47,494 bases of DNA from a virus. Lineage: Duplodnaviria; Caudoviricetes. This document shows, one piece after another, positions 1 through 46,150 of the stretch. The stretch is taken from IMG/VR virus record IMGVR_UViG_3300048576_000582, positions 1 through 47,494 of that record, one strand, 5' to 3'. Within the stretch, counting starts at the first letter, position 1, and the number at the start of each line of letters is the position of its first letter. A program made the translations under genes and the position numbers. Under the pieces are notes generated by a model. The model saw only the letters and a program-made list of their open reading frames with translations. It made no database searches and had not been told where the DNA came from.

Positions 1-213
1 TACTTTTCCGGCCGGGAGGAAACCGGGCTTTTTGGCGTTAACTTGCACCACGCCGGGGAAAATTCGGAGACTGTGGATAAATTCTCAGCAGGTTGCCAAG
101 TTTTTAAACGGCTCGCCGATTTCAACGAGTTTATGGCTCTGGCACGCCAGGCTCGCGACTTATGGGGAGATTCATTTACTTACTCTCTTTTATTGGAGGA
201 GGAGTTAGCGTGA
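1..213 (+). CDS. 3' end of YkuD/L,D-transpeptidase-like putative endolysin (partial; not in ORF track)
   Basis: Frame 1 reads YFSGREETGLFGVNLHHAGENSETVDKFSAGCQVF...LEEELA*; same His...SxGC motif as 44772-45356. Confidence 0.8.
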   Translation, partial: YFSGREETGLFGVNLHHAGENSETVDKFSAGCQVFKRLADFNEFMALARQARDLWGDSFTYSLLLEEELA

Positions 214-455
214 TTAAACAAATTAAGAATTGGCAAACCAGAACGCGAATAAAAGTATTTGTTTTCGCTCAAATTCCGGTTTTAATTTTAGCCGGTATTG
301 TTTTATGGGGATGGTTTCGCGGACTGTCAGATGCTCCGACCATGATGACGGCAATCATGGGTCCGGATGGTATTTGGGGTATTGGGACGGCGTTATCTGT
401 TGCACTTGAAAAGGCGTTAGCAGGTAAATCGTTTAAAAAGTCAGAGGAGGTTTAA
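210..455 (+). CDS. Putative holin
   Basis: GTG at 210 overlaps upstream TGA, with GGAGGAGG RBS; 1-2 TM segments, charged C-terminus, lysis context. Confidence 0.55.
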   Translation: MIKQIKNWQTRTRIKVFVFAQIPVLILAGIVLWGWFRGLSDAPTMMTAIMGPDGIWGIGTALSVALEKALAGKSFKKSEEV

Positions 456-457
456 AA

Positions 458-886
458 GTGTGCATAAAATTTATGTCGGTTTTATTATTGCTCTGCTTAT
501 TGTTATTGCCGGTTTGGGCGTCCAACTACGAAATGACAGAATTACAACGAACCGAAGCGATACAATTATTGCAGACCTTACAAAACAAAATTCAGCTTCA
601 ATTCAAAGAATTGCAGAGTTGCAAAAGCTCTATAACGGAGCTATCAATGAAACTTCAAGAATCAAGGCAGATTATCGAAGACTCGAAGCAAACTATAACG
701 AATCTCGAAAAATCATTGATGGAATCAGAGCAGGATTTAACGGAGTTATTGACGGCCTTAACGAATGCCAAGGAATCGTTGACAGAGTTACAAAAATTAT
801 CATCCAGTTACCAGAGGCAGATCCGTAATCTAAAAATACAAAGGAACTTAGCTGTATTGGTCGCAATTATGGCCGCTTTTTTATAA
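458..886 (+). CDS. Signal peptide + coiled coil + C-terminal hydrophobic anchor (spanin-like, frame A)
   Basis: 142 aa; PVWA cleavage-like site; homologue at 45369-45797. Confidence 0.7.
   Translation: MCIKFMSVLLLLCLLLLPVWASNYEMTELQRTEAIQLLQTLQNKIQLQFKELQSCKSSITELSMKLQESRQIIEDSKQTITNLEKSLMESEQDLTELLTALTNAKESLTELQKLSSSYQRQIRNLKIQRNLAVLVAIMAAFL
460..828 (+). CDS. N-terminal TM + coiled coil (i-spanin-like, frame B, nested in frame A)
   Basis: 122 aa; homologue at 45371-45739. Confidence 0.7.
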   Translation: MHKIYVGFIIALLIVIAGLGVQLRNDRITTNRSDTIIADLTKQNSASIQRIAELQKLYNGAINETSRIKADYRRLEANYNESRKIIDGIRAGFNGVIDGLNECQGIVDRVTKIIIQLPEADP

Positions 887-3360: not shown

Positions 3361-3651
3361 ATGGGTGAATGCACTATAACCATCCGAGATGGTAACCAAT
3401 GGCCGACATTTATTCACTCTCCCCACATCGGCTTTGACGATTGGTTCCGGGTAATTGTCAAAGAAGTGCGCTTTTTAGAAAAAGGGAAAAACGACTGGGC
3501 GGTGTGGGAGATAAATCCATTATATTTAGATGATTTGATTGGTTTTGCTAAGGATTGTTATGGAAACGGATTTAAATTGATTAATTTAAAGGAAAATCCG
3601 AAAGAACCAGAAGTTTTTCAAGAGTTTTCGGGGCAATTGGGATTATTTTAG
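3361..3651 (+). CDS. Hypothetical protein with C-terminal beta-clamp-binding-like motif
   Basis: Ends QLGLF; N-terminus MGECTITI resembles 12342 protein. Confidence 0.55.
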   Translation: MGECTITIRDGNQWPTFIHSPHIGFDDWFRVIVKEVRFLEKGKNDWAVWEINPLYLDDLIGFAKDCYGNGFKLINLKENPKEPEVFQEFSGQLGLF

Positions 3652-5352
3652 TTTTTTCCACCGTTCTCCATTCCATATCCTACAGATTTGGGCTTTAGAA
3701 ACATTATATTTTTTACATAACGATGTCAAGCTATCTGACCGATGCTCACGGATATATTGCACCTGTTCTTCCGTGAGCTTTGCATTTCGCCGGTTGTCCG
3801 GGTTAACTTTAGCGGGAAGTGTTGGTCTCCTACCGGACGTTTCTAAGGTTAGGCACGCTCCGCCTCCACCATCTAAATCCAAACCAAATTCACTATCAAT
3901 AAAACCATCTAAGATAGTGACTTTTTTAACATAGCTACTAATTATATTTTTACAGGCCTGAATATTATTCAAAAGGAAACTATTTTTGTCTTTTTCGAGA
4001 TACTTTTGAATCATTGATTCTGTTAATTGGTTTTCGACCTTTTTTATAGAACTATGGATTGTATTAGATAATATTTCTTTCTGTTGCTCTAGTTCCGATA
4101 ATGCATCTTTCATAGATGGATTATACATGCCATCGGATATGGCTTTAATTATATTTTGTATTTTATCCTCAACAACTCTCAATTCATTCCGAGCATATTT
4201 AATCTCAGCTTGTCTTTGCTGCACAATCTCATTGTTTTTTTCTTTAAGCATCTTCACTAGTTGGGTAATTCCTTCATCACTAAAAATAGCCTTTAAAAGC
4301 CATTTTACAACAAAACTTTCAATATATTCTTTGTTAACAGTTTTAGCGTCGCACGTTTTTAAACGTTTTTTATTATTGCATTCATAATAAGCATATATTT
4401 GCTTATTTCGCCCCTGTTTGGCTCGGTTGCCAACCATAACACCGTTGCATTTTCCACAATAAATCAGCCCCGTAAGTAAATATACTTCTTTAGCCTTGGC
4501 AGCTGCCGGGGCCTGTTTGCGTTTTTCCATAATTTTTTGAGCAGCTTCAAATTGTTCAGAAGTTATAATGGCCGGGATAACGCCATCAGCTTTAATTATT
4601 TGTTCGGCGTCTTTTTTAGCATGGTTATTACGTTTACCGTTTTTAGCTGATACAGCTTTATTAAAAATATAGATTCCTGTATATTTTTCATTACGTAAAA
4701 TTTCATAAACTGAAGTCTTCTGAAATTGTTTACCGGTTTTGGTAGTATATCCAGCTTGAGTTAAATGAATAATTATTTTAGGGTAGGATTCACCAGATAA
4801 ATACATATCGAAGATAATTCTTACTGCATCGGCCTCCGATTGATTAATAATCAATTTTTTATCAGGGCCTACGTCATAACCAAGCGGAGGTTTACCACCA
4901 GTGTGAAGTCCTTTATATGCATTTTCACGCATCCCCTTCATGACTTCCCGGGCAAGGTTTTTCGAATAATATTCATTCATAGCTTCAAGCATTGATTCAA
5001 GGATGATTGACTCCGGGGAATCATCCAACGGTTGGGCGACAGCTACTAGACACATATTATGATTAGTTAATTTACGCTTATAAATAGCGGAATCATAGCG
5101 ATTACGAGCAAAACGATCTAATTTGTGGACATAACAAAAATCGGCTTCAATTCTGCCGGACGATATATCCTCAAACATTTGTAAAAACAAAGGCCTATTA
5201 TCGGTAGTTGCCGATCGGGCTTCATCAATATATTCTTTAATTACTATAACACCTTTATTATCCGCATATTCACGAATAGCTCTTAATTGTGCGTCAATAG
5301 ATTCTTCGCGCTGATTATCTGATGAAAATCTAGCATATGCTATGGCTTTCAT
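3643..5352 (-). CDS. int: Large serine integrase, chimeric C-terminus beyond the att core
   Basis: YARFSS catalytic Ser, KLDRFAR, recombinase domain (PPLGY), Zn ribbon (CGKC...YYEC...C), coiled coil; GGGG encoded by att core. Confidence 0.95.
   Translation of the reverse strand: MKAIAYARFSSDNQREESIDAQLRAIREYADNKGVIVIKEYIDEARSATTDNRPLFLQMFEDISSGRIEADFCYVHKLDRFARNRYDSAIYKRKLTNHNMCLVAVAQPLDDSPESIILESMLEAMNEYYSKNLAREVMKGMRENAYKGLHTGGKPPLGYDVGPDKKLIINQSEADAVRIIFDMYLSGESYPKIIIHLTQAGYTTKTGKQFQKTSVYEILRNEKYTGIYIFNKAVSAKNGKRNNHAKKDAEQIIKADGVIPAIITSEQFEAAQKIMEKRKQAPAAAKAKEVYLLTGLIYCGKCNGVMVGNRAKQGRNKQIYAYYECNNKKRLKTCDAKTVNKEYIESFVVKWLLKAIFSDEGITQLVKMLKEKNNEIVQQRQAEIKYARNELRVVEDKIQNIIKAISDGMYNPSMKDALSELEQQKEILSNTIHSSIKKVENQLTESMIQKYLEKDKNSFLLNNIQACKNIISSYVKKVTILDGFIDSEFGLDLDGGGGACLTLETSGRRPTLPAKVNPDNRRNAKLTEEQVQYIREHRSDSLTSLCKKYNVSKAQICRIWNGERWKKLK
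3853..3884 (+). repeat. Left att junction (core plus attP arm)
   Basis: GCACGCTCCGCCTCCACCA 3853-3871 is 18/19 identical to 46209-46227; arm AAATCCAAAC 3875-3884. Confidence 0.9.
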
Positions 5353-13342: not shown

Positions 13343-13636
13343 GTGGAACAAAATGAACAGTATGTAATTGTGAGGACTTATTCAGCGGGGGTTTTTGCGG
13401 GGGAATTAAAATCCCGTGATGGTCAAGAGGTCGTACTGACTAACGCCAGGAGGCTCTGGTACTGGTCCGGGGCAGCGTCATTATCCCAATTAGCTGTTGA
13501 AGGAACCTCTCGACCGGAAAGTTGTAAATTTCCTGTCGCCGTACCGGAAGTAACTTTGTTACAAGCAATTGAAATTCTATCGGTTACGGATGCAGCTAAA
13601 GCATCCATCGAGAAGGTGACGGCATGGAGAGCTTAG
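13343..13636 (+). CDS. Conserved phage protein (DUF6948-like)
   Basis: YVIVRTYSAGVFAG...NARRLWYWSGAASLSQLA. Confidence 0.75.
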   Translation: MEQNEQYVIVRTYSAGVFAGELKSRDGQEVVLTNARRLWYWSGAASLSQLAVEGTSRPESCKFPVAVPEVTLLQAIEILSVTDAAKASIEKVTAWRA

Positions 13637-13833
13637 AGAAAATTTCCGGTTACGGTTCCGGTTCCGGTGACGGTGACGGTGACGGTTCCGGTTACGGTTC
13701 CGGTGACGGTGACGGTTCCGGTTCCGGTTACGGTGACGGTGACGGTTCCGGTTACGGTTCCGGTGACGGTGACGGTTCCGGTTCCGGTTACGGTGACGGT
13801 GACGGTTCCGGTTACGGTTCCGGTGACGGTTAA
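13624..13833 (+). CDS. Gly-rich (G-D/S/Y)n peptide encoded by hexamer repeats
   Basis: GGTNNC units 13648-13830 with 60-bp higher-order period. Confidence 0.6.
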   Translation: MESLEKISGYGSGSGDGDGDGSGYGSGDGDGSGSGYGDGDGSGYGSGDGDGSGSGYGDGDGSGYGSGDG

Positions 13834-13931
13834 TCAATTATGAAAGATTGGTGATTTCAATGGTTCGCGGTCCTCCGTGTATTTAATACGTACATCCAAA
13901 TAATTAAATCTATTTCAAGGAGTGGACTAAC

Positions 13932-35229: not shown

Positions 35230-38200
35230 ATGCCTTTAGTATTTCAAGATGACAGCCAGAATATAGTGGCGAATAACGACCGGTCAATTCTATTTGTCCC
35301 CCGGGTATCGTCAAGGCTTCAAGATACTTTTCAAAGTGTCCAAAATTTTGACCCAATCCGGACGGCGGATGTTATTAATATTGCCCAGAATACCGGTGAG
35401 CCGGAAGAATTTGTGGATAACAACCTCGAGGATTTAAAAAAGATTCAAAAAAATCCTACATTCCAGCAATGGAAGCAGTATGAATCGATGTTTCCGGGTA
35501 CAGCACAATTCCTTTCCGACCCAAAAAATATGGCTACCGCTAAAGATGTTTTGCCGGAGCTGGCCCAGCATGAATCCGCTTTAAAATTTGGATGGAATTT
35601 ACTTCAATTTGATTTTACCAAGCCGTTTACTAAACCGAAACCGGCGCCGACTGGAGCGGAGTTTTCTCAAAACTTTGCCCGGGGGTTGGGTTCCGGAAAT
35701 GAAAATGATCTGGCTTTTCAGGCTGGAGTCCAACTTGGGAAAGGCGAAAAAAGCGGTCAATTAAATGTTTCATACGCTCAACTGAGGTATGAGCAAATGT
35801 TAGAAACATTGCAGACCGGTCGGCGTTCCACCCGCAACGAATCCAAATTGCAACAACTGGAAGCGCAAATGGCGGCATTGGAAAGACCGATCGGTTTTAA
35901 TCCCTGGTATTTCACCGGTGAGCAGTTACCCAATTATGGGCTTATGTCCGAAAAAGCGGGCTTTTGGGCTTCAACCGGCGGAGTATTGGGAGGAGGATTG
36001 GCACTTATCGCGGGGAATGCGGGACCGCAAGCGGCGACACCGGAAGAGGTTGTAACCGTACCGGCGGCGGTGTTGACTGGTATGAAAGTTGGGGCCCAAT
36101 TAGGCGGAAAAATTGGTTTGGCGCAAGCGTCCGCCATATTGGAAGGCGGATCCGCTTACGGTGATTTTATTAAAATTCGGGATAAATACGGTAATCCAAT
36201 TGATCCCCAGGTGGCTGCCCAGGCCGCTTTGGTTGTTGGCGTTCTGAACTCCGGCTTGGAAATGGCCCAGGTTAGTTCGCTGTTGAAGACCATACCCGGC
36301 GGATCGAAAGTATTAGATTTTTTAGGACGGCAGGAAATAAAGAACCTTGCTAAACAATCAGGTGGGAACCTGATCCGGGCCGGTGTTAAAGAATATCTTA
36401 TAAATATGTTGAAGGAGTCTGGCCAGGAGTTTGCCCAGGAGACCGTCACCCAGCTCGGGGGCGAAATGGCAAAAACGATATCCGACCAGGAGTTTGACAA
36501 AAAACCGGTGGCGGATATTTTGGCGCAATCGTCCCAGGTAATCAGCCCCACCATTCAATCACAGCTGATATTTGGAATCCCTGGGTTAGGGTCGCACACA
36601 TACCAGGGTATAAAACAAATTCAAGGCGCTAACCAGGCTGTACAGGTTTATGAGCAGATCGGCAAGGTGGCGGCCGGGTCCCAATACTTGGACCGGATGC
36701 CCGAAAATTATGCCAAGTTTGTGGCGGATCAAGTAAAAAATGGACCCATCGAAAACGTATATGTTGATGCCCATCCATTGGTTTCCTTTTTGCAGTCTGC
36801 AGTTCCGGATATCACTAGAGAGCAGGTTGTCCAAGAAATATCTCAGGTATTCGGTTTGGGGGATGAAATCCAAACGGCGTTGGATACCGGCGGCAGCATT
36901 AAAATTTCATACGCGACCTGGTTGGAGAAGGTCGTAAAAACGCCGTTATATGATGCAGTAAAAAACGATGTGAAATTTTCCGAGGATGGCCTGACATATA
37001 ACCAGGCGGCCGTCGAAGAAAAACGGATCGCCGATATGATTACATTGGAGCAGCAAGCGGCGGAGCCCCAAATCATTCATAACAATATTATAAGGGATAA
37101 TTTTAATCTGATATATCAGGACGTAAAGGAAAAACTGACTGCAGCCGGCCGGCCCAAAAATATTCGGGAACGCGAGTTTGGAACCTGGGTGGATCGAAAT
37201 GCAAAACTCTGGGCTTCCCGGATGATTGCCGAGGCCTCCAGGCGCGGGGTTAATCCCATGGAATTATACCAGGGGATTAATCAGCCGGAGATTGTCCAGG
37301 GCGCCCGGGAAAATGCGGGGGCGTTGAATCAGTCGGCTGATCGGTTCGCCGCCAAAGGAAACCTTAACGGCAAAGCATTGTATTTTAAAGGGGAATTGAT
37401 TTATCCGGACAGTATTTATCAGAAATCAACGGACATTATCAGCCGCGGATTCGATCCTTTCGCAGAGGAAACTGGGGAAGATGCGGGGCATGATGCGTTA
37501 TATATGGCTCAATCCATGCAAGATGGTGATTTTAACTCGATTATTGAAATGTTTAACGAAGAAGGCACCAAATTTATTCCTTATGGTGTCCATATCATTA
37601 AAGGTAACAATAACTTTAGCTTTCGATTAGATCAAGATGGATTTTTGCAAAAAGATGGGTACTTAACCAAAGAACAAATTTTTAATGAATTTTATAACGC
37701 CGCTAAAGCGCTTAAAAATGATGGGTTTACGGGAAAACTGGAGATTCCGGAAATTCACTACAAAGGTACAATTGATAATTTTATAGGGGAAACGTTAAAT
37801 CAATCCGCAGTAGAAACGCCGGAATTTAAAAAATGGTTTAAAAGTTCTAAGGTTGTTGATGAACAAGGGAACCCATTAGTGGTATTTCATTTTGGTGGTA
37901 AAGATATACAGGAATTTGATTTAAATCGAACCAACGACATGTCGAATTATGGTCAAGGTTTTTATTTTATGGTTGGTCCAGATGGTCCCAGCTCCCTTTA
38001 TGAGTTAGCCTCAACTACCGGAATTATGGATGATGAAATCAGAGGTTATCCTACCGAAGAATTAGCCTATCAAAGCTTAAAAGACGATGGTCGTATTGTT
38101 GAAGCATATATCAATATTAAAAACCCAGTTCCACCCGAGAAGATATCTGAATATATGGGGGAAAATGGTTTAAAACAGGCTTATCAAGATGGATATGATG

Positions 38201-41200
38201 GGATCATTAATGTTCAAGAATATCCAAATGGTAAAAAGTATGGAGAAATTGCCGTTTTAAATTCTAATCAAATTAAATCTATTGACAATGTTGGTACTTT
38301 TGACCCATCCAAATCAAATATTTATATGCAAGATAATTCGGAACCACGGGCTCAGGTGAATATCAATCAAGATAAAAGCATTATTGCGTTATTTAATCAC
38401 GCTGATCAATCTAGTTTTATCCATGAATCCGCACACGTTTGGATGGAAGATTCCTTCCGGTTTGTCCGGAGCGGCCAGGCCGATGAAATTTATTTGGCCA
38501 ATTGGAGAACCTTGGCCGATTGGTTGGAAATTACCGATGAACAGGAAACTTTAACCACCGACCAGCAGGAGCAGTTTGCCCGGGGGTTTGAGGCATACCT
38601 TATGGAGGGTAAAGCCCCCAGCGAAGGTCTGCAAAAAGTTTTTGCCTCATTTCGGAGGTGGCTGATACAGATTTACCGGGATATTGCCGGGTTAAAAGTC
38701 GAACTTTCGGATCCGGTTCGGAAGGTGATGGACCGGATGGTGGCCACCGATGATGAAATTACCCAGCGGGAAGCGCTTAATGGTTATATGTTCGATGTGG
38801 TACGGGAAAAAGATGTTTCCCCCACGACCTGGTTGAAGCTCCGGGAACTGAAAGAAAAAGCGCACGAAATGGCGATAAATCAGTTACTCCGGCCACAAAT
38901 GGATGAGCTGAAGCCGGACCGGGAAGAATTTTTAGCCCAGGAAAGGGACCGGCTCCGGAAGGTGATCCGGGAGCAGGTGGCCACCCAACCGATATACCGG
39001 ATCGCAGAACCAATCCGGCAGCAATTTGGGACCCGGAAAAATCCGCTGGAGATTGCCCGAAAATTTTTAGCCGGCGGTGATGGATTGACCCCAACCGGGC
39101 AAAGACTTTTTGAAGCCATCGCGGAGGCTTATGGATATTCTTCCGGCGACGAGCTGGCCCAAAAGATGATCAAAGCGCCGAAATTTAATGATGTCGTCGA
39201 GGAACAACTGGCGGTTGAAATGGCGGGTAGATACGGTGATTTAAATCAGGATACAGCTGCGTTTCAATACGAGGCTGAAGCGGCATTACGGAATGATGAT
39301 CAAATGGATGTGTTGGCGCTCGAAAAGGCAATTTTACAGGACTTAATCCATCAGGAGGAAACCAATCAACTTTCCCGGCAGGTATCATTACAGCGCGCCC
39401 GGTCCTTGGCGGCCAATGCCCGGAAATATGCCAAAAGTGTCCTGGCTGAAAAACCTTACCAAGAAGCGACCGCGGCAACGGCATATTTTACAGCGGAACG
39501 GGTTGCGGCTGTGAGGGAGTCCCAGGAATACGCAAAGGGTAATTTTACGGAAATGCATCGGTTTGCAGAACAAAGGTTATTAAATCACGCTTTGGCGCTG
39601 GAGGCGGTGCAGCTTACCAAAGAGATTGATAAAAGTTTCCGGTATCTCAATAAATTCACCGGCAAAAGCCGGCCGGAAATTGGTCAGGAATTCTCAAACC
39701 AAATCGATAAAATCCTGGCCCGGTTTGAACTGGCCCAGCCGTCTTTGAACGTCCAGGAGGATCCAACTACGTTGACGGATTGGATTAAATCCCGGGAGCA
39801 ATGGGATGACGCCGCCATTCCGGAGACCATCGCCAACGAAACATTTGTAAAAAATTATCAAGATCTGACCCTGGGGGAGCTCCGGGACCTGGTGGATGCA
39901 GTCAAAAATATTGAGACCATCGCCCGGAACGAAAAACGGCAACTCACCGATGAAAAAGAGCGGGATTTTCAGGTTATTGTCAAAGAGATTACTGGCCGGA
40001 TCCGAAGGGAGAACAAAGAACTTTTTCCGAAAAATTATGATCCCAATGTGACCAAATTAGAATCTATCCTGCATTCGGTACGCAGTTTTGTGGCGTCCCA
40101 TCAAAAAGTTGAATACATCGTACGGGCTTTGGATGGGTATAAGGACCAAGGTCCGGTATGGCGGTATGTGATACTGCCCATGATGCGCGCCATGGATAAA
40201 GAGTATACTCTGCGCCGGAATGCCGGGGAAAAATATACCAAATTACTTCGGGATTATCTTGGAAAAGACTTGAGCCATTTGGCTACTAAAAAATTGTATA
40301 TCCCGGGGATGATCCATGCGATATTTCCGAAAGGGGTGACTAAGGAAAACATTTTGATGATGGCCCTTAATTGGGGCGCCACCGACAACCGGAACCGGCT
40401 GATGGATGCGTACTCGGAAACAATACAGTATACCGATGAGGACATCAAAGACATTATGCGGGAAAATCAGGCCGATGTTGATAAACTTGGACCTGGAAAA
40501 GTGATTATGAATGAAAAGCGCAAGGAACTTAAAGCGGCCTTTGAAAGCGTTTTTGACCGGCATATGACCCAAAGTGACTGGAATTTTGTCCAAGGTACCT
40601 GGGATATGATCGAGGAATTTTGGCCAATGATTGCCGAGGTGGAAAAGGCCCGCAAGGGGATCGAACCCAAGAAACGGGAAACCATCGAAGTGGTGACCAA
40701 ATACGGGACATACAAGGGCGGGTATTTTCATATCGAATATGATTCCCGGCTTTCGGAGCAGGCCAGCCGGCAGAGTGAACAAGAAAACCTGAAAGGGCTG
40801 ACCGAAATCACTTATTTAAAACCATCCACCAAAACCGGTTTCACCAAGGAAGTATCGGAGATGGTTGCAAACCGGCCGCTTAATTTGCATTTATCGGTAA
40901 TTGATAAACACCTGGCCGATGTGATCCATATGGTCAGTTTCATCAATGCGCTGCGAGATGTGGACCGATTACTGAACCATCGCGAGGTGATGAGGGTTAT
41001 TAAGGAAACCATGGGCGATGAAGTATACAAGCAGTTTAGGCCCTGGCTGATGAATATTGGCTATGAATACCGCTCCCCCATGACTCCGGTAGAAAATTTA
41101 TTGAGCCGCGCCCGGCAGGGGTCGTCTGTTGTTAACATGGGTTTTAAGTTTACCACCGCATTTTCGCAGTATGCGGGGCTGCCATCCATTATGGAGAAGG

Positions 41201-42198
41201 TCGGAAACAAGCGGACGCTCTCGGCAGTATTGGAGTTTCATAAAGATCTCATAACCGGGCAGGCAATGAAAAAAGCGCAGGAGGTTTTTGAAAAGTCGGA
41301 AATGATGCGGAACCGGATGAAAGACCGGGACCGGGATATCCGGGATACAACCAAAAAGCTTATTAGCACTAGCGCCTATGACAAGATTACTGATACATAT
41401 TTCGCACTGACTGGGCTTTTTGACTTTGCGATTACGGTGCCCGGGTGGATCGCCGCTTATGACAAAAATATTGCCGAGCAGATGAAGGCTGGCGAAGTTG
41501 CTTTGATGAACGGAGTGGACCCAAACGATATACTGAGCCTTAACGAGGAAATGGCGGTCCGTTATGCCGACGGAGTGATCCGGGAGACCCAGGGGTCTGG
41601 TGATGTGGTCAATATGGCAGCTATCCAGCGGGGGACTGAATTACAAAAATTATTGACCCAATTTTACAGTTATTTTTCAGTGTACGCCAACAAACAGATT
41701 GAAGCGGTCCAACGGGCAAAACGCCGCGGTGAATACGGCCAATTGGTATCATTCGCAATTTATTGGTGGTTCGTCCCGGCTCTGGCCAGTGAGTTGTTGG
41801 CCGGAAGGGGCCCTTCTGGAGATGATCCGGATGAAATGAAATGGGCAAAATGGGCCTTGACCAACGTGTTGAAATATCCGGCCAGTGCATTTATCGTAGT
41901 TCGGGATGTAGTTAACGCTCTGGGCGGAAAATTTGGTGGTTACGAGATGACCCCAAGCGCGGCAGCGCTTCAAAAAGGCGTGGAACTTTGGAACGTCACG
42001 GTAAATAAAGCAGTCAATGATGATGAAATCGACTGGGGCAAGGCCGGAAAAGCTGCGTTTGAATTTGGTGGATATTGGCTGAAGTATCCGTCACGACAGA
42101 TCGAAATCACCGTGGGCAATGTCTATGATGCCATCGTCAATGGGGAAGATTTTTATTTGCAGGATGTATTTTTCCCGAAGCCGGCTGAACGGAGATAA
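35230..42198 (+). CDS. Giant polyvalent ejection protein with ART-like and HExxH metallopeptidase domains
   Basis: 2322 aa; FKKWF..SKVVDEQGNPLVVFH...GFYF...GYDGI...QIKS; FIHESAH. Confidence 0.8.
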   Translation: MPLVFQDDSQNIVANNDRSILFVPRVSSRLQDTFQSVQNFDPIRTADVINIAQNTGEPEEFVDNNLEDLKKIQKNPTFQQWKQYESMFPGTAQFLSDPKNMATAKDVLPELAQHESALKFGWNLLQFDFTKPFTKPKPAPTGAEFSQNFARGLGSGNENDLAFQAGVQLGKGEKSGQLNVSYAQLRYEQMLETLQTGRRSTRNESKLQQLEAQMAALERPIGFNPWYFTGEQLPNYGLMSEKAGFWASTGGVLGGGLALIAGNAGPQAATPEEVVTVPAAVLTGMKVGAQLGGKIGLAQASAILEGGSAYGDFIKIRDKYGNPIDPQVAAQAALVVGVLNSGLEMAQVSSLLKTIPGGSKVLDFLGRQEIKNLAKQSGGNLIRAGVKEYLINMLKESGQEFAQETVTQLGGEMAKTISDQEFDKKPVADILAQSSQVISPTIQSQLIFGIPGLGSHTYQGIKQIQGANQAVQVYEQIGKVAAGSQYLDRMPENYAKFVADQVKNGPIENVYVDAHPLVSFLQSAVPDITREQVVQEISQVFGLGDEIQTALDTGGSIKISYATWLEKVVKTPLYDAVKNDVKFSEDGLTYNQAAVEEKRIADMITLEQQAAEPQIIHNNIIRDNFNLIYQDVKEKLTAAGRPKNIREREFGTWVDRNAKLWASRMIAEASRRGVNPMELYQGINQPEIVQGARENAGALNQSADRFAAKGNLNGKALYFKGELIYPDSIYQKSTDIISRGFDPFAEETGEDAGHDALYMAQSMQDGDFNSIIEMFNEEGTKFIPYGVHIIKGNNNFSFRLDQDGFLQKDGYLTKEQIFNEFYNAAKALKNDGFTGKLEIPEIHYKGTIDNFIGETLNQSAVETPEFKKWFKSSKVVDEQGNPLVVFHFGGKDIQEFDLNRTNDMSNYGQGFYFMVGPDGPSSLYELASTTGIMDDEIRGYPTEELAYQSLKDDGRIVEAYINIKNPVPPEKISEYMGENGLKQAYQDGYDGIINVQEYPNGKKYGEIAVLNSNQIKSIDNVGTFDPSKSNIYMQDNSEPRAQVNINQDKSIIALFNHADQSSFIHESAHVWMEDSFRFVRSGQADEIYLANWRTLADWLEITDEQETLTTDQQEQFARGFEAYLMEGKAPSEGLQKVFASFRRWLIQIYRDIAGLKVELSDPVRKVMDRMVATDDEITQREALNGYMFDVVREKDVSPTTWLKLRELKEKAHEMAINQLLRPQMDELKPDREEFLAQERDRLRKVIREQVATQPIYRIAEPIRQQFGTRKNPLEIARKFLAGGDGLTPTGQRLFEAIAEAYGYSSGDELAQKMIKAPKFNDVVEEQLAVEMAGRYGDLNQDTAAFQYEAEAALRNDDQMDVLALEKAILQDLIHQEETNQLSRQVSLQRARSLAANARKYAKSVLAEKPYQEATAATAYFTAERVAAVRESQEYAKGNFTEMHRFAEQRLLNHALALEAVQLTKEIDKSFRYLNKFTGKSRPEIGQEFSNQIDKILARFELAQPSLNVQEDPTTLTDWIKSREQWDDAAIPETIANETFVKNYQDLTLGELRDLVDAVKNIETIARNEKRQLTDEKERDFQVIVKEITGRIRRENKELFPKNYDPNVTKLESILHSVRSFVASHQKVEYIVRALDGYKDQGPVWRYVILPMMRAMDKEYTLRRNAGEKYTKLLRDYLGKDLSHLATKKLYIPGMIHAIFPKGVTKENILMMALNWGATDNRNRLMDAYSETIQYTDEDIKDIMRENQADVDKLGPGKVIMNEKRKELKAAFESVFDRHMTQSDWNFVQGTWDMIEEFWPMIAEVEKARKGIEPKKRETIEVVTKYGTYKGGYFHIEYDSRLSEQASRQSEQENLKGLTEITYLKPSTKTGFTKEVSEMVANRPLNLHLSVIDKHLADVIHMVSFINALRDVDRLLNHREVMRVIKETMGDEVYKQFRPWLMNIGYEYRSPMTPVENLLSRARQGSSVVNMGFKFTTAFSQYAGLPSIMEKVGNKRTLSAVLEFHKDLITGQAMKKAQEVFEKSEMMRNRMKDRDRDIRDTTKKLISTSAYDKITDTYFALTGLFDFAITVPGWIAAYDKNIAEQMKAGEVALMNGVDPNDILSLNEEMAVRYADGVIRETQGSGDVVNMAAIQRGTELQKLLTQFYSYFSVYANKQIEAVQRAKRRGEYGQLVSFAIYWWFVPALASELLAGRGPSGDDPDEMKWAKWALTNVLKYPASAFIVVRDVVNALGGKFGGYEMTPSAAALQKGVELWNVTVNKAVNDDEIDWGKAGKAAFEFGGYWLKYPSRQIEITVGNVYDAIVNGEDFYLQDVFFPKPAERR

Positions 42199-42241
42199 AG
42201 GATGGAAACAGTGTATCAATGTGAGAGGAGGGAAAACAGAC

Positions 42242-42733
42242 ATGTTAGAAATCCATAAGAATCTATATATTGGAAATGAAACCGATTATGAAGAATTAGT
42301 AAAAGACAAACCCGATTGGCATATTGTTCACGCTTGCAAGGAACCATATCACAGGGATCTGCTTGGTTATACTGGCCGAGGAGCTCCAAAAGATCATCCG
42401 GAATATTTTTTTGCAATAAGAGATAACCAGCTGTTTTTAAATATTGTGGACGCAGACAATCCACAATACATTCCCAACATTATTATCGATGAATCTTTGC
42501 GATTTATCGATGCTGCATTAATCAATAATAAAAAATGTTTAGTGCATTGCAATCTTGGGGAAAGCCGGTCTCCATCGATTGGATTGTTATATTTGGCTTT
42601 TAAGGGCGTAATACAAGCAGATTCATTCCTTGAGGCGGAACAAACGTATCGGCATATTTACCCTGATTATAACCCAAATAATGGAATACGAGGTTTTATG
42701 CAATTAAATTGGAGTAAATATACTAAAAAATAA
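42242..42733 (+). CDS. Dual-specificity / PTP-like phosphatase
   Basis: LVHCNLGESRS (CX5R); GAGGAGG RBS before 42242. Confidence 0.85.
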   Translation: MLEIHKNLYIGNETDYEELVKDKPDWHIVHACKEPYHRDLLGYTGRGAPKDHPEYFFAIRDNQLFLNIVDADNPQYIPNIIIDESLRFIDAALINNKKCLVHCNLGESRSPSIGLLYLAFKGVIQADSFLEAEQTYRHIYPDYNPNNGIRGFMQLNWSKYTKK

Positions 42734-42758
42734 GATCGAAATGAAGGAGGTATATTCA

Positions 42759-44069
42759 ATGTCAGTAACGTCTACCAGCAATAAAGCAGGACCATATTTA
42801 GGGAACGGGGTAACTACGCAGTTCAATTATAACTTTCCAATCTTTGCCCTTTCTGATGTTAAAGTGTATATCACAGATTTAGGAGGCAGTACCACTCTTG
42901 TGACATCAGGGTACCAGGTGGTCCCGAATAATCCATTGGATTACAGCACCGGTGGCCATGTTACATATCCGTATCCATCCGGTACTGTTTTGCCGACCGG
43001 ATACAAGTTAACTTTATTACGGGTATTACCGTTAGATCAGCCAAATAATCTACGAAATGTTGGAAATTGGGATGCGAATGTTTTTGAAAATATGTATGAC
43101 CGGCTAACTATGATGATACAGCAAATTAACGAAGTTGTACGTCGAGCCAATGTGGCTGATATTACACAAAATAGTGGGGTATATACTTATCCGGTTCCGG
43201 CTCCTGGAAAGGCTATTTTATGGAATGCAAGTGGAACCGGATTTATAAATCAAGATTTAGAGTCCAGTGCTAACAATTTTAATACTCAAATTATCTCAAA
43301 TGTTGCTACCGGGGTGGCACCAATAAGCGTAACGAGTATCACGGAATGTCCGAACTTGCACGCGGCTACGGCAACAACAGCGCTAGACACAATCACGTTA
43401 GTTGTTAGTAATTGGATCTCGCGCACATCTCCTGAAAATAACGCATGGAGTTCAGTCTGTTGGTCACCGGAGTTAGGATTATTTGTGGCAGTTGCAACCT
43501 CAGGAAGTGGAAATCGAGTCATGACTAGCCCGGATGGTCTTAATTGGACTAGTAGATCATCGGCTGCGGATAACGCATGGAGTTCAGTCTGTTGGTCACC
43601 GGAGTTAGGATTATTTGTGGCAGTTGCGTATACTGGTACGGGAAATCGAGTCATGACTAGCCCGGATGGTCTTAATTGGACTAGTAGATCATCGGCTGCG
43701 GATAACGCATGGCGTTCAGTCTGTTGGTCACCGGAGTTAGGATTATTTGTGGCAGTTGCAACCTCAGGAAGTGGAAATCGAGTCATGACTAGCCCGGATG
43801 GTCTTAATTGGACTAGTAGAGAGATTGATAATAATGCATGGACATCGGTTTTTTGGTCTTCTATGCTAGGAGTGTTTGTCACTGTGGGATATCAAACCGG
43901 TCCTTTTGGTAAAATTGCAATCAGTTACAACGGTCTTAATTGGATCTCGCGCACATCTCCTGAAAATAATCCATGGCGTTCAGTCTGTTGGTCACCGGAG
44001 TTAGGATTATTTGTGGCAGTTGCAGAAGATGGCACCAAAAGGGTCATGACTAGTTTATTTTACAAATGA
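42759..44069 (+). CDS. Tail fibre / receptor-binding protein with Asp-box-like repeats
   Basis: T7-type N-terminal adaptor (GNGVTTQFNYNF); about five 44-aa repeats with SPDGLNW. Confidence 0.8.
   Translation: MSVTSTSNKAGPYLGNGVTTQFNYNFPIFALSDVKVYITDLGGSTTLVTSGYQVVPNNPLDYSTGGHVTYPYPSGTVLPTGYKLTLLRVLPLDQPNNLRNVGNWDANVFENMYDRLTMMIQQINEVVRRANVADITQNSGVYTYPVPAPGKAILWNASGTGFINQDLESSANNFNTQIISNVATGVAPISVTSITECPNLHAATATTALDTITLVVSNWISRTSPENNAWSSVCWSPELGLFVAVATSGSGNRVMTSPDGLNWTSRSSAADNAWSSVCWSPELGLFVAVAYTGTGNRVMTSPDGLNWTSRSSAADNAWRSVCWSPELGLFVAVATSGSGNRVMTSPDGLNWTSREIDNNAWTSVFWSSMLGVFVTVGYQTGPFGKIAISYNGLNWISRTSPENNPWRSVCWSPELGLFVAVAEDGTKRVMTSLFYK
43410..44050 (+). repeat. 132-bp tandem repeats, nearly identical at DNA level
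   Basis: AACGCATGG at 43440, 43572 and 43704. Confidence 0.9.
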
Positions 44070-44462
44070 TCAAATTTTAAATTTAACACCTATTTGAACA
44101 TTGTGAGAAACGAAATAGGTTTCAGTAGCGATGCCAATTATAGTCCACCATTTCTTTATTTTTGGATTGGCATACTTGATAATTAATATATTAGCACTGA
44201 TTGAGGCTAGAAAATACATATCAACTTGTTCTAGTGTGGGATGTCTTCCCAAAATCGGATTAATTTCGTTATAAGTAAAACCTGATTGGTCGAATGTGAT
44301 GCAAGGGTCTGAACGATTTGTGGCGATATCCCTAGTTTGTGCCCAATCTGCGACGCATAGCAAAATCAATACGGTGTCAGTTTCTTCCCATTTATTCTCA
44401 GCCATAACTGGCACCGTAAATAATATTATCAAAATGGTAGTTAAACCAAATATTTTTAACAT
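44070..44462 (-). CDS. Moron: exported or membrane protein
   Basis: Signal peptide, hydrophobic helices, DWAQT and EINPILG motifs. Confidence 0.7.
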   Translation of the reverse strand: MLKIFGLTTILIILFTVPVMAENKWEETDTVLILLCVADWAQTRDIATNRSDPCITFDQSGFTYNEINPILGRHPTLEQVDMYFLASISANILIIKYANPKIKKWWTIIGIATETYFVSHNVQIGVKFKI

Positions 44463-44512: not shown

Positions 44513-44555
44513 CATTAAAAATTTTATTTAATTAATTTGAAAGGTGAGGATTATT

Positions 44556-44759
44556 TTGGAAGAATTAATTAAAGTGGCAATCCCTAACGGTATTTTTGCG
44601 GTCCTATTTGTTTTTCTGCTTTGGTGGATTTTGAATGAAAATTCAAAGCGCGAAGGGCGGTATCAGACAACCATCGATAAGTTAGCCGATAAGTTGGATA
44701 TCATAGATCTAATTCAAAAAGATGTGACAGAAATTAAAATTAAAATTGATCAAAAATAG
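44556..44759 (+). CDS. BhlA/UviB-family holin
   Basis: GIFAVLFVFLLWWIL.ENSKRE.RYQ..IDKL. Confidence 0.85.
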   Translation: MEELIKVAIPNGIFAVLFVFLLWWILNENSKREGRYQTTIDKLADKLDIIDLIQKDVTEIKIKIDQK

Positions 44760-44771
44760 GAGGAACAGCAA

Positions 44772-45356
44772 ATGATCCCAAATGCACGACCTCGGCTATC
44801 GTCTGCGGAATTAAATGAGAGAATAAAACAATTTAATGTCGACCAAAAACAATATCCTTTATTTATCGCTGCTATCAGAGGATATTACAAAAACTCCCTG
44901 GGCGAACCGGGGACAAATGATTGGGGTATTTATGACGATGCGGCGTTTATCATATCGCCCGGTTTCTTTGCTCCATATAATTTTAATACAGACCCAAGTA
45001 AACACCGGCCTGGATATGGCACTGGAGAACACAAGGGCATGGGCCAGGTGAAAACGGGTTTATGGTATTACACTTTTGGGATTCACCACGGTTCAAAAAG
45101 CAGTTATCCAGCGCTTATCCCGGCAAGAGAAATGACCGTTATCCGGGATGGAGTCGAAGGGCCATACCAGGATGATGGTTGGTTTGGAGATAACATCCAT
45201 GCCGGTGGCGAGACAACGACCGGATCGGAAGGTTGCCAAACCGTCCCACCAAAACAATGGGATAGTTTTTATGGGGCGATGGTGGGACAAGCAAAACGGT
45301 TATTTGGTGACCAATGGAAAACGGCTGTTATCCCATATATATTAATTGAGGAATAA
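44772..45356 (+). CDS. Putative endolysin, YkuD/L,D-transpeptidase-like Cys enzyme
   Basis: GDNIHAGG...SEGCQ; between holin and spanin-like genes. Confidence 0.65.
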   Translation: MIPNARPRLSSAELNERIKQFNVDQKQYPLFIAAIRGYYKNSLGEPGTNDWGIYDDAAFIISPGFFAPYNFNTDPSKHRPGYGTGEHKGMGQVKTGLWYYTFGIHHGSKSSYPALIPAREMTVIRDGVEGPYQDDGWFGDNIHAGGETTTGSEGCQTVPPKQWDSFYGAMVGQAKRLFGDQWKTAVIPYILIEE

Positions 45357-45368
45357 GGAGGTTTTACA

Positions 45369-45797
45369 ATGTGCATAAGATTTATATCACTATTATTGTT
45401 ATTTTGCTTATCATTATCGCCGGTTTGGGCTATGGATTATACAATGAACGAGGAGACACGGGCCAAAGCGCTCAAGTTAATCAGCGAATTACAAAAAACC
45501 TGGGACAAGCGGACTTCCGAATTAGAGAGCTTGAAAGCCAGCAAGAAATTGACCGACGAACAATTACTGAACTTAGAGACGATCAACGCCGACTTACAGA
45601 AACGAATCTTCGTCTTAGAGAACTTAGCGAACAGCAGGGAAATATCATTGGAGCAATTGAAGCAGGCGAAAGCGGAGATCGAAAAAGACTTGAACGATTA
45701 CAAGCAATTATTGAAGGAATGCCAGCGGCAAATCATTAGCTTAAAATGGCAACGAAATATTGCTGTGTTGGTGGCGATCGCCAGTTTCTTTTTGTGA
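45369..45797 (+). CDS. Spanin-like frame A (signal peptide, coiled coil, C-terminal anchor)
   Basis: 142 aa; homologue of 458-886. Confidence 0.7.
   Translation: MCIRFISLLLLFCLSLSPVWAMDYTMNEETRAKALKLISELQKTWDKRTSELESLKASKKLTDEQLLNLETINADLQKRIFVLENLANSREISLEQLKQAKAEIEKDLNDYKQLLKECQRQIISLKWQRNIAVLVAIASFFL
45371..45739 (+). CDS. Spanin-like frame B (N-terminal TM, coiled coil)
   Basis: 122 aa; homologue of 460-828. Confidence 0.7.
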   Translation: MHKIYITIIVILLIIIAGLGYGLYNERGDTGQSAQVNQRITKNLGQADFRIRELESQQEIDRRTITELRDDQRRLTETNLRLRELSEQQGNIIGAIEAGESGDRKRLERLQAIIEGMPAANH

Positions 45798-45979
45798 AGA
45801 AAGAATAGCCCAACCACAAGTTTACCCATGAACTAAATATAAAAAATGTCCAATAATGTAATATTTAATATTTAAACATGATACTATTATTTTTATAAAA
45901 ACTAAGGATTGAATTAATCTTAATTTACGGTATAATAAAAATGGTGTTTGATTCAAATAAAATCCAGGGGAGGTATATA

Positions 45980-46132
45980 ATGCAATTTATTTTTTGCGAT
46001 TATCTGAATTTATTGGACATTATTTGTTATTCAAACAAACACAGAACATATGTTCTAGTATCAACTAAATTAAAAGATAGAAAAAAAGAATTATTAAAAA
46101 TAGAAAATCATATAATAAAAAAGCTCCGTTAA
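45980..46132 (+). CDS. Possible 50-aa moron peptide
   Basis: TTGAAT-16-TATAAT promoter (45909-45936), GGGGAGGT RBS, downstream terminator. Confidence 0.4.
   Translation: MQFIFCDYLNLLDIICYSNKHRTYVLVSTKLKDRKKELLKIENHIIKKLR
46043..46056. promoter_or_regulatory. Firmicutes-type LexA (Cheo) box
   Basis: AGAAC-ATAT-GTTCT perfect palindrome. Confidence 0.55.
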
Positions 46133-46150
46133 TCTACGGAGCTTTTTTAT
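46115..46150. terminator. Bidirectional terminator
   Basis: ATAAAAAAGCTCCGT-TAATCT-ACGGAGCTTTTTTAT. Confidence 0.85.

Follow-up and report, generated by a model that had tools for sequence, protein, structure and literature searches.

An overlapping gene pair behind one ribosome-binding site

The stretch of DNA analysed here, called the window throughout, covers positions 1 to 47,494 of the virus record IMGVR_UViG_3300048576_000582 (47,494 nucleotides, nt; Duplodnaviria, Caudoviricetes), which is listed as viral. It contains two diverged copies of a pair of overlapping genes, here named A and B, in which B lies within A in another reading frame. We find that the pair is a widespread dual-coded lysis module, apparently undescribed so far, whose role in lysis is suggested by its sequence and its setting. 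The features of the two copies are as follows.

45369..45797, + strand: frame A, copy 2; ATG start, 142 amino acids (aa); proposed outer component
45371..45739, + strand: frame B, copy 2; GTG start, 122 aa, -1 frame relative to A; similar in type to an inner-membrane spanin subunit (i-spanin)
45356..45361, + strand: AGGAGG serving both copy-2 starts, assigned from sequence; spacing 7 and 9 nt
45750..45794, + strand: A-only region of copy 2, past the stop of B, with QRN and the hydrophobic tail
458..886, + strand: frame A, copy 1; GTG start, 142 aa
460..828, + strand: frame B, copy 1; GTG start, 122 aa
445..450, + strand: AGGAGG serving both copy-1 starts, assigned from sequence; spacing 7 and 9 nt

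An earlier reading of the window, made from its sequence only, described two start codons 2 nt apart behind one ribosome-binding site (RBS), and this is what both copies contain: the starts of A and B share a single AGGAGG, the end of its GGAGG being 7 nt from the start of A and 9 nt from that of B. In copy 2 the first A of the AGGAGG is also the last base of the TAA stop of the upstream endolysin candidate. The stop of B lies 58 nt upstream of that of A, the overlap takes up about 85% of A (some 120 codons), and the third frame is full of stops in both copies. The sequence-only reading also held that both frames stay open at equal lengths despite divergence, which the comparison bears out: the copies align without gap or indel, 217 of 429 bases are identical (51% DNA identity), and 57 of the 143 codon translations in A and 37 of the 123 in B agree.

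As read from the sequence of copy 2, A probably begins with a signal peptide (residues 1–21, ending in VWA) followed by one long helix and, after QRN, a short hydrophobic tail, and B is predicted to have an N-terminal transmembrane segment at about residues 4–24 followed by a helical rod. Both frames are presumably translated, in which case the single RBS would couple the amounts of the two subunits.

Conservation of the pair and selection on both frames

A profile of the two A copies retrieved 63 representatives among 1.84 billion proteins, most of which share the signal segment, the rod and the QRN with its hydrophobic tail. A 52-row A profile was then run on 301 genomes of the class Negativicutes, 88 of which match it. 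The loci examined, 109 in total and 105 distinct, comprised 90 that cover 91 of the 119 listed places, 17 found in other collections, and both copies in the window. The counts that follow refer to a full-length set of 102 loci with an A of 115–200 aa, both window copies included; four duplicates, the partial loci L099 (96 aa) and L101 (49 aa), the low-complexity repeats L199 and L202 and the locus L088 were removed beforehand, and L068 and L098, where A appears broken, are counted within the 102. L088, taken up as a possible family member, was rejected as a false match, being a 378-aa peptidase-type coiled coil in which frame B is closed.

At all 102 loci, no less than 70% of A has frame B open (median 85%), and the other alternative frame is open over 50% of A at none of them. 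Retention of both frames in homologues, which the sequence-only reading had named as the property to look for, is thus the rule, and a commonly stopped frame was not seen. Given the residues of A and the local codon usage, an open B would arise by chance with a probability of 10^-4.9 in copy 1 and 10^-6.4 in copy 2, the median over the 102 loci being 10^-4.5 per locus, and in control windows of 122 codons from 27 other genes of the window the B-type frame was open in 0 of 71.

Conservation at the four-fold degenerate sites of A is higher where B overlaps than in the stretch used by A alone, and this holds for each of three identity bins (0.53 vs 0.32, 0.73 vs 0.53 and 0.85 vs 0.74; the pairs compared share ancestry and are not independent), which is the depressed synonymous variation to be looked for under the earlier proposal. 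A B profile from which the window copies were kept out gives the two real B proteins scores of 33.1 and 36.7, whereas the highest scores among 200 synonymous recodings of A without stops are 11.6 and 20.2. Prolines in B lie below the recoding null in 99 of 99 loci, and its N-terminal uncharged run is longer than the null in 97 of 99. Open-frame odds, four-fold sites and recoding all show that both frames are under selection, as had been proposed from the two window copies, and B is selected as a protein. The pair represents an extreme case of natural dual coding, for which the separated and tail-swapped variants described below are natural controls.

The idea of a shared initiation site holds in part. 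Twin starts behind one RBS are the commonest layout, with automatic (heuristic) picking placing the offset at -4 in 37 and at +2 in 15 of 93 loci and the remainder variable, but the arrangement is not obligatory. A second class, with 58 genomes and 15 matched places, holds 11 overlapped pairs (some partial), two false repeats and the loci L195 and L191, 13 true loci in total. At L195 B and A are adjacent separate genes, side by side; the match to the B profile covers 96% at an E value of 2e-9, and the start of A is uncertain. At L191 (1411–1920) A stands alone behind a fused remnant of B, among host genes and directly before an LmeA-like gene and lpxB, and this A-type gene has possibly been taken over by the host or is decaying. 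The closest relative among the loci of the second class is L200 (37% in A, 36% in B). Four genomes of this class carry near-identical pairs (L109, L192, L193 and L194) behind a small helix-turn-helix (HTH) gene, and in one case examined (L206) an amidase and a holin lie about 2 kb from such an HTH-preceded pair. A 3.2-kb contig of a metagenome-assembled genome titled Phycisphaerales (L014) carries a locus near-identical to L018 from the Negativicutes class and is probably mis-binned.

A tblastn search of 50,697 phage records gave one relative, an unannotated gut phage scaffold; word-seeded protein searches met nothing beyond the proteins of the window itself; no loci came from pattern scans that used the endolysin, P0045 or the two-sequence alignment; and the ESM Atlas gave unnamed clusters only, DUF6808 at 0.86 being a lead and nothing firmer. 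In the B family, 22 of 74 members match phrog_18860, with a best E value of 1e-55, and the B of copy 2 has no match to it at E 0.001; the library entry records unknown function and, differing from what is described here, no link to an overlapping frame. Weak matches in the phylum-wide search described below were mostly to what we take to be long coiled-coil proteins (about 400 aa) or proteins resembling ATP synthase b. Automatic gene calls give one frame of the pair or the other, and because only one frame is listed the system is hidden in annotations.

Lysis cassettes, prophages and hosts

The sequence-only reading proposed a lysis system, and the pair does sit in lysis cassettes across the wider family: an endolysin or holin is found among the two nearest upstream open reading frames (ORFs) at 53 of the 71 diverse loci that have upstream ORFs, counted by hand, and the window itself has a BhlA holin. 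The lysis enzymes at these loci come from at least six unrelated families (Amidase_2, Amidase_3, GH25, GH108, M15 and glucosaminidase), and a VgrG3-like C-terminal domain present at five loci, which we take to be a wall hydrolase, was counted as one. As the enzyme families beside it are unrelated, the pair appears to travel with the lysis function and not with one enzyme. The neighbouring features in the window are these.

44544..44759, + strand: BhlA-family holin (PF10960, E 1.1e-16)
44772..45356, + strand: endolysin candidate, 194 aa (phrog_3000, unknown function, E 2.6e-8)
1..213, + strand: C-terminal fragment of an endolysin candidate of the first element (phrog_3000, E 5.6e-10)
162..455, + strand: small hydrophobic ORF, possibly a holin judging by shape and position
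3643..5352, - strand: serine integrase between the first lysis cassette and the second prophage (Resolvase, Recombinase and Zn ribbon domains; phrog_95)

Copy 2 terminates a podovirus-like prophage with serine integrase, terminase, portal, capsid and tail genes, the BhlA holin and the endolysin candidate. Proteins of phrog_3000 occupy the endolysin position in both elements and share a conserved H...S-x-G-C-Q motif. The product of 44772..45356 has no Pfam or PDB match, and we regard it as a probable endolysin from the match of a phrog_3000 relative, at L207, to the endolysin family phrog_33083. The proposal that the pair sits in two prophages is borne out for copy 2, where everything from integrase to lysis genes is seen. 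For copy 1 the element is deduced: this copy follows the endolysin-family fragment and the holin-like ORF 162..455 (which has no Pfam or PHROG match) and lies upstream of the integrase, so that it should belong to another element, of which the end alone, the final 2.6 kb, is inside the window. Among the 20 largest families of direct repeats, none was recognisable as an attachment site.

Elsewhere in the window, positions 35230–42198 encode a polyvalent protein of 2322 aa whose domains include LPD22 and an ADP-ribosyltransferase (ART-PolyVal); a gene for a dual-specificity phosphatase comes next, at 42119–42733. An array of 6-nt units (GGTTCC, GGTGAC, GGTTAC) at 13611–13856 encodes a Gly-Ser/Asp/Tyr repeat, and four copies of a 132-nt repeat at 43426–44084 fall in a tail-fibre-like gene (42741–44069). 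After the lysis genes, at 46115–46150, a 15-pair hairpin between A and T runs resembles a terminator in both directions.

The separated B and A genes of L195 close a locus with eCIS_core, AAA-WHD ATPase, AHH nuclease and Imm11 immunity genes (L204:2-8096, G724:C69), which suggests that this pair serves the release of a contractile injection system.

The sequence-only reading suggested a diderm Firmicute host, and the carriers are mostly two-membraned Bacillota, namely Negativicutes and the Omp85- and LpxB-positive second class, in which Omp85 was found in five of five carriers tested; one carrier, G421, is an exception. Of 401 Bacillota genomes sampled evenly, 99 have Omp85; true pairs were found in four genomes positive for Omp85 and LpxB (one of them the seed) and in G421. 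This phylum-wide search scored 9–10 candidates per genome, and 39 of its 48 A matches were examined, the other nine lying in frames of 388–440 aa, together with part of the weak B matches. Enrichment of the pair in Omp85-positive Bacillota is suggestive, not firm. From its relatives, the host of the window is probably a two-membraned member of the Bacillota as well.

Membrane anchors, possible mechanism and relation to spanins

Spanins are phage lysis proteins whose outer-membrane subunit (o-spanin), or whose single chain in unimolecular spanins (u-spanins), is a lipoprotein according to the available part of the survey PMC6139136, the criteria of which leave out other anchors. The claim of the sequence-only reading that neither frame has a lipobox is upheld: no lipobox-like pattern occurs in any + frame of 440–900 or 44760–45900. 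Among the 102 A proteins the lipoprotein rule, in what we take to be its PROSITE-type form, picks out five. The consensus lipobox of PMC6139136 likewise occurs in 5 of 102. A cysteine is present within residues 11–42 in 89 of the 102, and 13 have none; directly before the last such cysteine, alanine stands in 5, serine in 6 and glycine in none of the 89. The commonest signal ending in A is C-S-A, which puts the cysteine at -3 of a signal-peptidase-I site, and a site of this kind precedes the rod motif in 68 of 95 A proteins, judged by pattern. In the window copies the cysteine lies mid-segment after L or F.

AlphaFold models A as a signal helix and a single helix spanning residues 28–141 (mean pLDDT, the predicted local confidence score, 95). 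The uncharged stretch has a median length of 15 residues in the tail of A against 21 in the anchor of B. On what we take to be the translocon scale, a rough insertion score is +9.7 for the A tail and -1.3 for the B anchor, with A scoring worse at 95 of 95 loci; insertion of the A tail is favourable at 0 of 95 loci over 19 residues and at 15 of 95 over 15. Five relatives (L069, L097, L084, L085 and L107) have a longer A tail with alternating hydrophobic residues, predicted to be of beta type, and three of these show the full alternating pattern with a terminal Phe, which is typical of outer-membrane barrels. Their barrel nature is suggested by the pattern. L107 (beta tail) and L034 (helical tail) come out as sisters, at 100% support, when a quick tree is built from the overlapped part, and they differ sharply in the tail alone. 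These tail swaps, together with the poor translocon score of the usual A tail, point to anchoring in the outer membrane. In the ESM Atlas the L085 tail met unnamed viral clusters of 63–71 aa, with DUF6808 as a weak lead.

We favor, as rather probable, the view that the two proteins act in the manner of a two-component spanin that lacks a lipoprotein. As predicted from its sequence, B has the features of an inner subunit of type II topology, with an uncharged run of suitable length, a favourable insertion score and depleted prolines, and its N-terminus would be placed in the inner membrane. Export of A, with cleavage by signal peptidase I, would leave it fixed in the outer membrane through its C-terminal tail. 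The two rods, each about 100 residues long, could then bind via their free ends, where the best-conserved part of B is also found. As B would be anchored N-terminally and A C-terminally, antiparallel zippering from these ends would bring the anchors together; once the endolysin has removed the wall, such a zipper may pull both membranes together in a manner analogous to SNARE proteins, until they merge. A programmed frameshift joining the anchor of B to the rod of A is not required by this scheme, as the separated pair L195 argues.

Several observations weigh against this reading. The A tail ends in K or R at 82 of 97 loci, which also fits a stop-transfer anchor in the inner membrane. The beta tails are modelled at a pLDDT of about 40 in a monomer model, and with a cut-off as loose as E 10 they still gave no match to an outer-membrane family of Pfam. 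At 18 of the 71 loci no lysis gene is recognised among the two nearest ORFs; eight of these have an upstream ORF of 184–206 aa, of which one matches tail-fibre families and seven (L051, L058, L060, L072, L081, L083 and L086) have no Pfam or PHROG match, and these ORFs in the endolysin position are possibly unrecognised endolysin families. In the carrier G421, whose pair is on a contig of 4.2 kb where the start of the gene is cut off, Omp85, LpxB and TamB all gave no match, and without the seed genome the Bacillota sample gives 3 of 98 Omp85-positive genomes versus 1 of 302 (p about 0.05, by hand). Finally, the weak similarity of B to Rz-like PHROGs, otherwise a point in favour, is at a level that could be generic for anchored coiled coils: the window B proteins match at E values of 0.006–0.02, and at most 5 of 74 B members match any one Rz-like family at E 0.001.

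Alternatively, A alone could span the envelope as a lipid-free analogue of a u-spanin, its signal segment kept in the inner membrane and its tail in the outer, while B acts as a chaperone or an inhibitor that sets the timing, as in the dual-start pair of holin and antiholin. A does have a hydrophobic segment at both ends, it persists without intact B at L191 (a further point against the two-component scheme), and twin starts suit an effector and its regulator. Yet the signal-peptidase-I-like site in most A proteins argues against a retained signal segment, in its anchor and in the length of its rod B matches an i-spanin, B persists even where the genes are separated, and L191 lies among host genes and not in a lysis cassette; we consider this account unlikely. 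Just as improbable, in our view, is that both proteins are anchored in the inner membrane (B with its N-terminus, A with its C-terminus) and act at the holin and endolysin step, timing lysis or guiding the endolysin, with no part in the outer membrane. The K or R ends of the A tails and the carrier G421 fit this idea, and additional membrane-bound regulators of lysis are known in mycobacteriophages, as the accessible portion of PMC13056207 describes. It sits badly with the short and poorly inserting A tail, with the beta-type tails that replace it in five loci, with the holin that most loci already carry and with the concentration of carriers in Omp85-positive genomes.

Could A instead be an ordinary outer-membrane lipoprotein with an unusual lipobox, which would make the pair a standard embedded spanin that starts early? 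A cysteine is present in the signal region of most A proteins, and unusual lipoboxes such as AWAC exist (PMC6139136, in the part available). However, that cysteine is preceded by a small residue in only 11 of 89 cases, some A proteins lack it, few satisfy the lipoprotein rule, and in the window copies it follows L or F in mid-segment; a Cys codon moreover arises in A wherever an xTG codon of B precedes a pyrimidine, and A carries a second anchor, which o-spanins lack. This makes the explanation very improbable. Least credible of all, and largely refuted, is the notion that A is the sole gene and B its shadow. Automatic calls do show one frame or the other, and a few unrelated high-GC (rich in guanine and cytosine) coiled-coil genes are also 70–100% open in the B-type frame over the matched part, but B is open at every full-length locus against very low chance expectations, its sequence is selected, and it exists as a free-standing gene at L195.

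Returning to the two-component scheme, the pair resembles the embedded Rz/Rz1 spanins of lambda and the overlapped LysB/LysC of P2 in being the last genes of the lysis cassette and in using two frames on shared DNA. Like the Rz/Rz1 type it combines, in one of its subunits, a predicted inner-membrane anchor at the N-terminus with a helical rod, and it occurs in embedded and separated layouts. The outer subunit of the Rz/Rz1 type is a lipoprotein, whereas A lacks a lipobox and, unlike o-spanins, is the longer ORF, with a long helix, a cleavable-looking signal and a C-terminal tail. The starts, 2–4 nt apart, also differ from an internal o-spanin start (about 70% of embedded o-spanins start at 0.4–0.5 of the i-spanin length, in the portion available of PMC6139136), and the order of nesting is reversed, B being embedded in A. 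The u-spanin gp11 of phage T1 resembles A in being a single chain that carries an export signal at its N-terminus and a hydrophobic segment at its C-terminus; it has an N-terminal lipobox and an inner-membrane C-terminal helix (same part of PMC6139136), and A has no lipobox, a tail that seems too short to insert readily into the inner membrane, and an overlapping partner. A has no significant sequence match to spanins. We do not place the pair in the spanin family, since A does not look like a lipoprotein and the similarity of B to Rz-like families is weak.

Anchoring in the outer membrane by protein and not by lipid, as proposed for A, is known from OmpM and trimeric autotransporters, whose coiled stalk with beta strands after it is reminiscent of the five A proteins with beta tails; the beta tails give no Pfam match to these anchors, and most A proteins have the short hydrophobic tail instead. 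OmpM replaces Braun's lipoprotein in diderm Firmicutes, according to the part of PMC5491611 at hand. Negativicutes lack LolA and LolB, and Halanaerobiales possess LolA (available part of PMC5007114), and in Veillonella outer-membrane proteins no lipid modification was detected, a result that the authors call inconclusive in the portions at hand of PMC5007114 and PMC5491611. In the second class LolA was found in 0 of the 58 genomes, by a profile that also missed several control diderms. The apparent absence of Lol proteins speaks for the lipoprotein-free scheme and could explain in part why such a design is used.

No description of such a pair was found in the literature, as covered by listings and the openings of abstracts, with subscription journals and supplements outside the scope. 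The accessible part of a comparison of Negativicutes prophages (bioRxiv 10.1101/606087) does not contain the word spanin or describe such a pair, nor does that of PMC8705779 describe one. It is conceivable, though we would place it somewhat short of an even chance, that the pair represents a third, lipid-free class of phage outer-membrane fusogen, in which two rods co-initiated from one RBS zip antiparallel in a SNARE-like manner and the outer subunit has an interchangeable protein anchor (short helix or beta tail), and which serves as a general exit device for the phages and contractile injection systems of diderm Firmicutes. If this is true, the helical tail of A would reveal an undescribed route of protein insertion into the outer membrane of diderm Firmicutes. 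Negativicutes lack the Lol pathway, and for the way in which their phages cross the outer membrane the pair, present in at least 88 of the 301 sampled genomes of the class, is a concrete candidate.
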